Shown: piece after piece, positions 17,274 to 35,113 of the stretch
How positions within the stretch are numbered: position 1 is the stretch's first letter
Layout: each line of letters opens with the position of its first letter
Source of the DNA: Escherichia coli
Lineage (GTDB): Bacteria > Pseudomonadota > Gammaproteobacteria > Enterobacterales > Enterobacteriaceae
NCBI RefSeq assembly: GCF_003334335.1
Contig: NZ_QOWQ01000044.1
Length of the DNA stretch: 35,113 bases
Reading direction: 5' to 3' (one strand)
Program-made: the position numbers and the translations under genes
The notes under the pieces: generated by a model
Told to the model about the DNA's origin: nothing
Databases searched by the model: none
Seen by the model: the letters and a program-made list of their open reading frames with translations, nothing else

Positions 17274-17589
17274 CCGCTGACACAGGTCTGCGGCTGGAAT
17301 TGCCTGATGCGCTACGCTTATCAGGCCTACGAGTTCAGTGCTCTACGTAGGCCGGATAAGGCGTTCACGCCGCATCCGGCATAAACTACAGCTGGCAGAC
17401 AGCCGCTGCGAAGGCATTTTTGCACATGGCGTTGGAGGAATGCGCGGTTGTTGGCGGGAATGAATCACGGTAGCCGCTGACACAGATCAGCGGCTGGAAT
17501 TGCCTGATGCGCTACGCTTATCAGGCCTACGAGTTCAGTGCTCTACGTAGGCCGGATAAGGCGTTCACGCCGCATCCGGCATAAACTAA
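17190..17589. repeat. 2 x 200-bp tandem direct repeat (cynR 3' end + hairpin + REP pair)
   Basis: Copies at 17190-17388 and 17390-17588 differ at about 6 positions; each carries the last 28 codons of cynR including TAG, a short hairpin and two inverted REPs. Confidence 0.92.
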
Positions 17590-17609
17590 GCTCGCTGTAA
17601 CCCAGTCGT

Positions 17610-20294: not shown

Positions 20295-20470
20295 GTAGGC
20301 CTGATAAGACGCGTCAGCGTCGCATCAGGCATCTGAGCATGGTGTCGGATGCGACGCGAGCGCCTTATCCGACCTACGGTTCAGGTCCGTAGGCATGATA
20401 AAACGCGTCAGCGTCGCATCAGGCATCGGCACACAGTGCCGGATGCACCGCGCGACGCATCCGACAATAA
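20295..20470. repeat. REP/BIME array between codB and prpE
   Basis: Four REP palindromes in alternating orientation (gtaggcctgataagacgcgtcagcgtcgcatcaggc...); the last abuts the prpE stop. Confidence 0.88.
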
Positions 20471-23882: not shown

Positions 23883-25052
23883 TTACTGGCGCTTATCCAG
23901 CGCGACAAACGGGCGGTCTTCCGGTCCAACATAATTGGCGGAAGGACGGATAATTTTGTTGTCCTGACGTTGTTCGATAATGTGCGCCGCCCAGCCGGTG
24001 ACGCGGGCGATAACAAACAGTGGTGTGAACATCTCGGTGGGAACGCCCATCATGTTGTAGGAAACAGCAGAGAACCAGTCGAGATTGGGGAACATCTTTT
24101 TGCTCTCCCACATCACCGTTTCCAGGCGATCGGCGATGTTGTACATCTTCAGCGAGCCGCCTTCCTGCGAGAGCTGCTTCGCCACACGTTTAATCACCTG
24201 GTGGCGCGGGTCAGCGATGGTGTAAACCGGATGACCAAAACCAATGACCACTTCTTTGTTTTCCACGCGCTTGCGGATATCTGCTTCGGCTTCGTCCGGC
24301 GTTTCGTAGCGTTGCTGGATCTCCAGCGACACTTCATTCGCCCCGCCGTGTTTTGGCCCGCGCAGTGCGCCAATCGCGCCAATAATCGCGGAATACATAT
24401 CAGAGCCGGTGCCCGCAATCACCCGACTGGTAAAGGTGGAGGCGTTAAACTCGTGTTCGGCGTACAGCACCAGCGAGATATGCATCGCCTTTTCCCAGCT
24501 TTGCGATGGCTTTTCGCCGTGCAGCAGATGCAGGAAGTGACCGCCGATGGAGTCGTCATCGGTTTCCGGTTGGATGCGTTCGCCGTTGTGGCTGTAGTGA
24601 TACCAATAAAGGAGAATCGAGCTAAGCGACGCCAGCAGTTTGTCGGCAATATCCCGCGCGCCAGAGACGGTATGCCCCTCTTTTTCTGGCAGCGTGCAGC
24701 CGAGCGCGGAAACACCGGTGCGCATAACATCCATCGGGTGCGACGCCGCCGGTAAGGCTTCCAGCACGGTACGCACGTTAGCCGGTAAACCGCGCAGGGC
24801 TTTCAGTTTCGTTTTGTAAGCGGCGAGTTCGTCACGGGTCGGCAGTTTGCCGTGGATCAGCAGATGCGCCACTTCTTCAAATTCGCAATGTTTCGCCAGA
24901 TCAAGAATATCGTAGCCGCGGTAATGCAGGTCATTGCCACTTTTACCCACGGTGCAGAGCGCCGTATTGCCCGCCGGAACGCCAGAAAGTGCCACAGATT
25001 TTTTCGGTTTAATGACATGGGTACTGTTTTGCAGGATCGTTGTGTCGCTCAT
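23883..25052 (-). CDS. prpC: 2-methylcitrate synthase
   Basis: 389-aa citrate-synthase-family ORF recognised as PrpC. Confidence 0.96.
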
Positions 25053-25091
25053 GTTGTCCTCGTCATTGTTATCATTTGTAGGGTCGAGATT

Positions 25092-25370
25092 GTTGTCGGA
25101 TGCGACGCTATGCGTCTTATCCGACCTACAGTTCAGTTCACCCCGTAGGCCTGATAAGTCGCGTCAGCGGCGCATCAGGCATCGGTTGTCGGATGCGACG
25201 CTATGCGTCTTATCCGACCTACAGTTCAGTGCACCCCGTAGGCCTGATAAGTCACGTCAGCGGCGCATCAGGCATCGGTTGTCGGATGCGACGCCATCCG
25301 TCTTATCCGACCTACAGTTCAGTGCACCTCGTAGGCCTGATAAGTCGCGTCAGCGACGCATCAGGCATCG
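25092..25370. repeat. 3 x 93-bp tandem BIME array in the prpB-prpC intercistronic region
   Basis: Unit starts at 25092, 25185 and 25278 (period 93 bp); each unit is a pair of inverted REPs; a degenerate partial fourth unit follows to about 25385. Confidence 0.92.
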
Positions 25371-25398
25371 GCTGTCGAATACAATCAACGGGCGTTTT

Positions 25399-26289
25399 TT
25401 ATTTCACCTGGCTACGGGCAAACAGGTTGTCGAGCTTCTCTTCGTACTGGTAGTAGTTGATGCTTTCGTACAGCTCGTTGCGGGTCTGCATGGTGTCGAT
25501 GACGCTTTTCTGCGTGCCTTCCTGGCGCAGGACGTTGTAGACATGTTCAGCGGCGCGGTTCATGGCGCGGAACGCTGAAAGTGGGTACAGCGCCATTGCG
25601 ACATGGGCGCTGCGTAATTCGTCGGTGGTAAACAGCGGCGTGGCACCAAATTCGGTGATGTTGGCGAGGATCGGCACCTGCACCGCATCGGCAAACTGGC
25701 GGTACATGGCGAGTTCGGTAATCGCCTCCGGGAACAACATCTCGGCACCCGCTTCAACATAGGCCTGCGCACGCTCGATCGCCGCATCCAGCCCCTCTAC
25801 CGCCAGAGCATCGGTGCGCGCCATGATCACAAAATCAGGATCGGTTTTCGCATCCACCGCCGCGCGGATCCGATCCACCATCTCTTCTTTCGAGACGATC
25901 GCTTTATTCGGACGATGACCGCAGCGTTTCGCACCAACCTGATCTTCAATATGCAATCCTGCCGCACCGGCTTTAATCATCGATTTCACGGTGCGCGCCA
26001 CGTTAAAGGCCGAAGAACCAAAACCGATATCCGCATCCACCAGCAGCGGCAGCGAACAAACGTCGGTGATACGGCGAATGTCGGTCAGCACATCATCAAG
26101 GGTAGAAATACCGAGATCGGGCAGCCCCAGCGAACCTGCCGCCACGCCACCGCCAGAAAGATAAATTGCCTGATATCCGGCACGCTGCGCCAACAGCGCA
26201 TGATTAGCGTTGATGGTGCCAACAATCTGCAATGGATTTTCTTTAGTCAGTGCAGCGCGAAACGCTTTACCTGGAGAGTGTAGAGACAT
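25399..26289 (-). CDS. prpB: 2-methylisocitrate lyase
   Basis: 296-aa ORF recognised as PrpB; AAGGAT Shine-Dalgarno 6-11 nt upstream of the ATG; sigma54 promoter upstream. Confidence 0.96.
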
Positions 26290-26334
26290 AGCCCATCCTT
26301 TGTTATCAACTTGTTATTTGCGTTGATAAAGACA

Positions 26335-34855: not shown

Positions 34856-35113
34856 TGCCTGATGCGCTACGCTTATCAGGCCTACAATTCTCGCGCCACT
34901 CGTAGGCCGGATAAGGCGTTCACGCCGCATCCGGCAATGGTGACAAATGCCTGATGCGCTACGCTTATCAGGCCTACAGATTCTCGCGCCACTCGTAGGC
35001 CGGATAAGGCGTCCACGCCGCATCCGGCAGTGGTGGCAAATGCCTGATGCGCTACGCTTATCAGGCCTACAGATTCTTGCGCCATTCGTAGGCCGGATAA
35101 GGCGTTCACGCCG
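34856..35113. repeat. Tandem BIME array (92-93-bp period) upstream of yahI
   Basis: Unit starts at 34856, 34948 and 35041; array is truncated by the window end. Confidence 0.9.

Follow-up and report, generated by a model that had tools for sequence, protein, structure and literature searches.

Copy-number polymorphism of a BIME-2 array in the prpB-prpC spacer of Escherichia coli

A three-unit REP array occupies the prpB-prpC spacer

The window analysed here is a 35,113-nt stretch of E. coli DNA (contig NZ_QOWQ01000044.1 of RefSeq assembly GCF_003334335.1) in which prpB and prpC are separated by repeats (Table 1). The original prediction had placed three 93-bp units of paired inverted REPs in a spacer of 346 bp, and both statements hold. 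According to the ORF coordinates, prpB ends at 25399 and prpC begins at 25052 on the minus strand, leaving a 346-bp spacer at 25053-25398, and Tandem Repeats Finder (TRF) reported an array at 25092-25377 with a period of 93, 3.1 copies, 95% matches and a score of 523. A repeat search returned three copies spaced 93 bp apart, with identities of 98% and 93%. The fractional TRF count arises because the last 12 nt of the left flank, TTCGACAGCCGA, resemble the 3' arm of the y REP plus the 6-nt inter-unit linker; this partial copy is also the crossover partner in the ML35 and BUCT2930 alleles described below.

Read in the operon sense, each unit consists of a 37-nt z2 REP (inverted, ending in CTAC), a 15-nt linker, a 35-nt y REP (starting with GTAG) and a 6-nt linker, with the two REPs in opposite orientation. 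Six perfect copies of the REP head motif GTAGGYCKGATAAG lie in the array, on strictly alternating strands; the 35-kb window as a whole holds 22 such heads, against 0.03 expected from shuffles. All six REPs of the array are predicted to fold into hairpins (-14.4 to -21.4 kcal/mol, z -3.3 to -6.5), and the RNA of the whole spacer has a predicted folding energy of -150.9 kcal/mol (z -7.4).

Neither an intrinsic terminator (T-run) nor a sigma-70 promoter consensus was found in the prpB-prpC spacer, and the IHF consensus WATCAANNNNTTR does not occur in the array. An IHF consensus, TATCAACTTGTTA, lies at 26304-26316 in the prpR-prpB divergent control region, where it would fit an IHF-assisted sigma-54 promoter of prpBCDE. 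Three + strand ORFs crossing the array (24852-25148, 24934-25578 and 25100-25453) were rejected as mechanical, being antisense to prpB/prpC and spanning REPs. Some records annotate a 'hypothetical protein' on these ORFs.

Table 1. Features of the prpB-prpC region (window coordinates)
Feature	Position	Strand	Remarks
prpC (2-methylcitrate synthase), gene downstream of the array	23883..25052	-	389-aa ORF; position as in MG1655, GM4792 annotation
prpC leader, downstream of the array, with GAGGA ribosome-binding site	25053..25094	-	right flank AATCTCGACCCTACAAATGATAACAATGACGAGGACAAC identical in 2- to 7-unit alleles
y REP, unit 3 (MG1655 unit d)	25095..25129	-	GTAG head 25116-25129; predicted hairpin -19.2 kcal/mol, z -5.8
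15-nt z2-y linker GGGGTGAACTGAACT	25130..25144	-	d-specific A at 25138; mismatch there vs MG1655 out of register
115-nt interval holding the junction of the unit absent vs MG1655	25139..25253	.	bounded by b-marker 25254 and d-marker 25138
z2 REP, unit 3 (inverted REP in prp mRNA)	25145..25181	+	head 25145-25158; predicted hairpin -16.3 kcal/mol
y-linker-z2 dyad matching Rfam naRNA4 (RF02564)	25148..25219	-	63.1 bits vs gathering threshold 59.5
y REP, unit 2 (MG1655 unit b)	25188..25222	-	head 25209-25222; predicted hairpin -19.2 kcal/mol
z2 REP, unit 2	25238..25274	+	b-specific marker at 25254 (T, operon sense); head 25238-25251; predicted hairpin -14.4 kcal/mol
y REP, unit 1 (MG1655 unit a)	25281..25315	-	loop variant GGATGG; head 25302-25315; predicted hairpin -17.7 kcal/mol
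z2 REP, unit 1, first hairpin in the prp mRNA spacer	25331..25367	+	head 25331-25344; predicted hairpin -21.4 kcal/mol, z -6.5
Left flank 3' of the prpB stop codon, 31 nt	25368..25398	-	last 12 nt TTCGACAGCCGA resemble y 3' arm + 6-nt inter-unit linker
prpB (2-methylisocitrate lyase), gene upstream of the array	25399..26289	-	296-aa ORF; annotation of matching records

The array is an ordinary BIME-2 element

The prpB-prpC array is an ordinary E. coli BIME-2 element. Its REPs are imperfect palindromes of 30-40 nt that form hairpins, carry a GTAG 5' foot and lie repeated in extragenic DNA. Alternating z2 and y REPs with GTAG heads follow one another in an intergenic tandem with short linkers (15 and 6 nt) and no IHF linker, and the number of copies varies between strains; in none of these respects does the array differ essentially from BIME-2. 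The z2 and y classes were assigned partly by comparison with the class consensus sequences. The BIME-2 family was defined by Gilson, Bachellier and Hofnung, a definition restated by Ton-Hoang et al. in 2012 (PMC3333891). As described in the literature, BIME-2 elements are composed of z2 and y REPs in tandem, with a per-locus copy number that differs between strains (PMC3333891), and the passage of PMC1187871 that cites Bachellier 1997 gives a high length polymorphism by PCR of 51 isolates.

Within the window, the 37-nt CCTGAT-type REPs of the prp array contrast with the 30-nt z1 REPs of the array at yahH. The prp y REPs are the variant GTAGGTCGGATAAGACG...CGTCGCATCCGAC, whose stem differs from that of the yahH y REPs by two compensatory changes.

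When the window was searched with the Rfam covariance model of naRNA4 (RF02564), one y-linker-z2 dyad of the prp array passed the gathering threshold (Table 1), and the next dyad (25241-25312) scored just under it with 57.7 bits. The model also matches four other BIMEs in the window, so a match marks a BIME dyad rather than a specific gene. Like the prp array, REP325/naRNA4 (Qian et al. 2015, PMC4550694) is a BIME-2 array of Y-linker-Z2 elements between two co-oriented genes, with transcription coming from the upstream one; unlike it, REP325 comprises six 77-bp repeats with identical U spacers. HU binding by a discrete RNA, with condensation of the nucleoid, has been reported for REP325 only (PMC4550694).

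Other repeats are found in the same window. A second 93-bp array at 34856-35113, which runs off the window end, lies between yahI and yahG; it is an atypical BIME of z1 and y REPs with two naRNA4 matches (78 and 72 bits), the annotated 'yahH' ORF sits on it, and MG1655 has 3.9 of its units. At 17190-17592, a 200-bp tandem duplication (2.0 copies, 96% matches) comprises the last 84 bp of cynR and a REP pair. Several records label its second copy an incomplete 'hypothetical protein'; the duplication is present in MG1655 and reduced to a single copy in the OV2 assembly. A y/z2 dyad in the codB-prpE spacer (20295-20377, naRNA4 71.6 bits) is apparently absent from UMNF18, NT1F25 and 2018-05-5CC, whose spacer measures 235 vs 329 bp, and thus appears to be a presence/absence BIME polymorphism beside the prp operon. 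The best naRNA4 match, at 79.3 bits, is a BIME dyad at 3-80, downstream of mhpE; in strain YZ_2_2 this dyad shows clustered differences from the window at 10-31.

The window carries one unit fewer than MG1655

The MG1655 spacer lies between the end of prpB at 349572 and the start of prpC at 350012; it measures 439 bp and holds 4.1 repeat copies. Alignment of the two spacers left one clean 93-bp gap, with 386 of 386 aligned window bases identical, while outside the array the alignment is gap-free on both sides over the full window length. The expectation that K-12 has one unit more (346 vs 439 bp, a single 93-bp gap) is thereby borne out, as is that of an offset of exactly 93 bp with all other spacings as in K-12. 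The original prediction would have had to be dropped if the reference had held the same three units in a 346-bp spacer; MG1655 has four.

With the four units of MG1655 lettered a to d, a single base separates b from c (T vs C) and a single base separates c from d (C vs A); unit a bears five private markers. By these markers, the window array reads a-b-d, compared with a-b-c-d in MG1655. In a simulation, the window spacer was reproduced exactly when 93 bp were deleted from that of MG1655, whichever of 116 consecutive starts was chosen. This places the junction within 25139-25253, a perfectly homologous stretch of 115 nt.

Outside the array, the window differs from MG1655 by nine substitutions. 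At three of these positions (8720, 21400 and 28610) it carries the base of wild isolates (ML35, UMNF18 and FORC 064 among them), from which all K-12 records differ. The remaining six, at 1578, 9233, 11243, 22953, 29507 and 33851, are private with respect to K-12 and every wild relative examined. The possibility that the window derives from K-12 was rejected because of these wild-isolate bases and private substitutions. Since the window is not K-12, four units were never the expectation, and the comparison is one between strains. The private changes comprise mhpF A189E, lacZ W159R, lacZ D829N, yahM S21R, a synonymous change in prpD and one intergenic change; transversions make up five of the six, and all but one of the five coding changes are non-synonymous. 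Such a pattern looks more like sequencing error, mutagenesis or added noise than like natural divergence. Position 8720 is position -1 in the lac promoter/operator region, with A in the window, ML35, UMNF18 and YZ_2_2 and G in MG1655 and MG1655-pvir. Among RefSeq complete genomes, none was identical to the window across 25 kb.

Several distinct alleles differ from the four-unit array by single events

Comparison with other genomes revealed three three-unit alleles, a-b-d, a-c-d and b-c-d, along with shorter and longer arrays (Table 2). In simulations, each derived allele examined equalled the MG1655 spacer after one in-register event. The existence of three distinct three-unit alleles indicates that loss of a single unit is recurrent. 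Among the three-unit products, a-b-d has the longest homology (115 nt), which fits with a-b-d being the commonest three-unit form. At the other extreme, the junction of the seven-unit BUCT2930 array lies in a 5-nt microhomology, CGACA, shared by the left flank and the c-d linker and too short for RecA-type exchange.

Table 2. Alleles of the prpB-prpC array derived from the MG1655 spacer
Allele	Strains	Derivation	Crossover interval
a-b-d	window, UMNF18, GM4792, MG1655-pvir	MG1655 minus 93 bp, 116 equivalent starts	115 nt
a-c-d	ATCC 8739 (flank 98.9%)	MG1655 minus 93 bp, 41 starts	40 nt
b-c-d	ML35, YZ_2_2	MG1655 minus 93 bp, 16 starts	15 nt
two-unit	TOE17	MG1655 minus 186 bp	40 nt
two-unit	17MR471	MG1655 minus 186 bp	about 26-27 nt
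seven-unit	BUCT2930	MG1655 plus 279 bp, exact tandem duplication of a-b-c	5 nt

Unit number varies from zero to seven across E. coli

Of 5,426 complete E. coli genomes, 5,221 carry the locus. Because BLAST joins pieces of the repeat, its summary numbers are unusable for alleles; unit counts were therefore obtained with flank-only queries, the spacer length being read from the span, in an evenly spaced sample of 59 genomes (Table 3), and the resulting frequencies describe samples, not a census. Public E. coli genomes range from 0 to 7 units, the seven-unit arrays having been seen beyond this sample. About a third of E. coli genomes (~37% of the sample) have no unit at all, and the array is dispensable for the operon.

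Table 3. Unit number in an evenly spaced sample of complete E. coli genomes
Units	Spacer	Genomes	Examples
0	44 bp	22/59	B2 strain S88
1	159 or 155 bp	15/59	O157 EDL933
2	253 bp	1/59	
3	346 bp	4/59	
4	439 bp	14/59	MG1655 derivatives, BL21(DE3)
5	532 bp	3/59	

In the 60 genomes whose 8.2 kb of flanks are nearest to those of the window, four units predominate (54 genomes), with three, two and seven units in two genomes each. At least 33 complete genomes carry the exact a-b-d allele (951/951 identical); their sources are pigs, cattle, humans and the environment, and three K-12-labelled lab strains are included. The allele occurs on at least four flank haplotypes: that of K-12, a UMNF18-like one, that of strain 54 and USMARC-51408, and that of NT1F25 and 2018-05-5CC, whose flanks carry more than 60 substitutions on the prpR side. 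Conversely, five array alleles coexist on the window's own 8.5-kb flank haplotype (0-1 substitution). With many alleles on one haplotype and a-b-d on several, the array changes much faster than its flanks, and the locus behaves as a fast-mutating variable-number tandem repeat (VNTR). As in bacterial VNTRs that change by slipped-strand mispairing, changes are integer and in register, haplotypes carry many alleles, and alleles recur. The prp array differs from an ordinary VNTR in that its unit is a palindrome pair with a dedicated transposase family, so that a second, enzyme-driven route would be possible in principle. Length polymorphism of BIME-2 between E. coli strains has been known since the 1990s, and the exact allele of the window is in public genomes; a search on the prpB-prpC array specifically found no paper in the literature library used.

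The three-unit count most likely reflects a real polymorphism

The original prediction had left two readings side by side, a real copy-number variant or an assembly collapse. For the locus, the first is certain: neither b-c-d, which has lost the distinctive unit a, nor the seven-unit array can be produced by merging near-identical units, and real change in unit number is thus proven. For the window itself the question is narrowed in favour of a real variant, and its three units most likely represent the known BIME-2 copy-number polymorphism.

Collapse would mean that the source strain has four units and that the assembler merged b and c, which differ at one position in 93. Such a merger gives exactly a-b-d, and the 115-nt homology makes this allele the most probable outcome both of a real deletion and of short-read collapse. 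Two further assemblies with a-b-d are also short elsewhere: the yahH array of GM4792 is one unit short (329 vs 422 bp), and OV2 is missing two units of that array as well as a copy of the 200-bp cynR-codA repeat. These two 'complete' K-12-derived assemblies are probably collapsed at two or three REP arrays in the 35-kb region. In addition, the six private, mostly non-synonymous and transversion-rich substitutions of the window hint at imperfect sequence quality. Against this, the 200-bp duplication is intact in the window, and the window's yahH array equals that of MG1655 through the 2.8 units it contains. UMNF18 and MG1655-pvir are likewise short at prp only. Moreover, a-b-d has been recovered in its 33 or more complete genomes by many laboratories and on several haplotypes, and b-c-d and the seven-unit array lie beyond what collapse makes. 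We therefore consider collapse an unlikely origin of the window's count. GM4792 also carries a lacI-lacZ fusion that removes window positions 8621-8821.

Slippage-type loss of one unit is the favoured mechanism

We propose that the window array a-b-d is very probably the a-b-c-d array of MG1655, BL21 and most close relatives minus one unit, through a slippage-type loss with little effect on prp. An in-register misalignment of the near-identical units b and c, within their 115 nt of perfect homology, would have removed one unit, the likely cause being replication slippage or unequal sister-chromatid exchange. Consistent with such a polymorphism, alleles differ by whole units in register, and the same changes recur on different backgrounds.

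A change in the opposite sense, in which three units are ancestral, K-12 has duplicated one and the window keeps the older form, is highly improbable in our estimation. It would agree with the three units (a-c-d) of ATCC 8739, whose flank is more divergent (98.9%), and duplication of c followed by one C-to-T change would yield a-b-c-d. However, the middle unit of the window bears the derived b marker (T), which otherwise occurs only beside c in four-unit arrays, and simple duplication of a-b-d cannot yield a-b-c-d. Four units are also the state of most of the closest haplotypes (54 of 60) and of BL21, which is more distant.

Alternatively, the REP-associated tyrosine transposase (TnpA-REP/RAYT, yafM) might have excised the unit by cutting in iREPs or linkers. 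In vitro, this enzyme cuts single-stranded BIME DNA at TGCC/TGAT and GCC/TAC (the slash marking the cleavage position) and recombines it, and it has been proposed as a driver of BIME-2 copy-number variation and amplification (PMC3333891). The first site lies within the 15-nt crossover interval of ML35 and the second within the 27-nt interval of 17MR471, whereas the 115-nt interval of the window is uninformative and the seven-unit junction, CGACA, lacks the required C/T. Furthermore, slippage predicts that the longest homology should give the commonest product, which is the case here, and the literature examined contained no report of in vivo TnpA-REP activity on chromosomal BIMEs. Sequence alone cannot separate slippage or RecA-dependent exchange from TnpA-REP action; on balance, excision by the transposase appears quite improbable, and we retain slippage-type loss as the preferred explanation.

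Possible function of the array in the prp transcript

Stabilisation of mRNA and partial termination are textbook roles of REPs, and the original prediction had suggested that the array can exert one or the other on the prpB message. The REPs lie between co-oriented prpB and prpC, in a spacer free of promoter and terminator consensus, within the co-transcribed prpBCDE operon. The array would be transcribed within the prpBCDE mRNA as six stable hairpins, which could block 3'-to-5' exonucleases and favour the prpB segment, and may mildly attenuate read-through; by analogy with the general role of REPs and BIMEs, it may thus stabilise or partly terminate the prpB message. Newbury, Higgins and colleagues reportedly described in 1987 intercistronic REPs that stabilise mRNA at malE-malF and hisJ-hisQ, and Espeli et al. 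are said to have described BIME-associated transcription attenuation in 2001. Like these stabilisers and attenuators, the prp array places REP hairpins in a polycistronic transcript after its first gene and without a T-run.

An effect on translation is less readily envisaged. A REP within ~15 nt of a stop codon reportedly causes ribosome stalling and trans-translation (Liang, Rudd and Deutscher, 2015). The first z2 REP of the prp array starts 31 nt after the prpB TAA, compared with this threshold of ~15 nt, which puts the array outside the class reported to stall terminating ribosomes. At the other end, the last REP and the prpC ribosome-binding site are equally far apart in all alleles of 2 to 7 units, so unit number should not directly alter initiation of prpC translation.

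At the DNA level, the array is a BIME-2 site to which gyrase may bind. In a subset of BIME-2 elements, the y REPs are enriched for gyrase cleavage (PMC6379681), and the prp array is not among the entries of the gyrase Topo-Seq supplements examined.

One unit more or less probably changes effects on expression or supercoiling little. We regard as very unlikely a non-neutral role in which array length (0-7) acts as a fast-switching heritable tuner of prpB versus prpCDE or of supercoiling, with the short-homology junctions (ML35 and the seven-unit array) arising from ongoing TnpA-REP activity in natural populations.

Discussion

The shift of 93 bp relative to K-12 coordinates is due to a benign length variant of a BIME-2 array and entails no gene-level change, and beyond housekeeping its importance is small; the finding is correct and ordinary. 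For E. coli genomics, the prpB-prpC array is among the faster-changing sites in phylogroup A genomes, where it may be useful as a marker for typing and is a pitfall in assembly from short reads.
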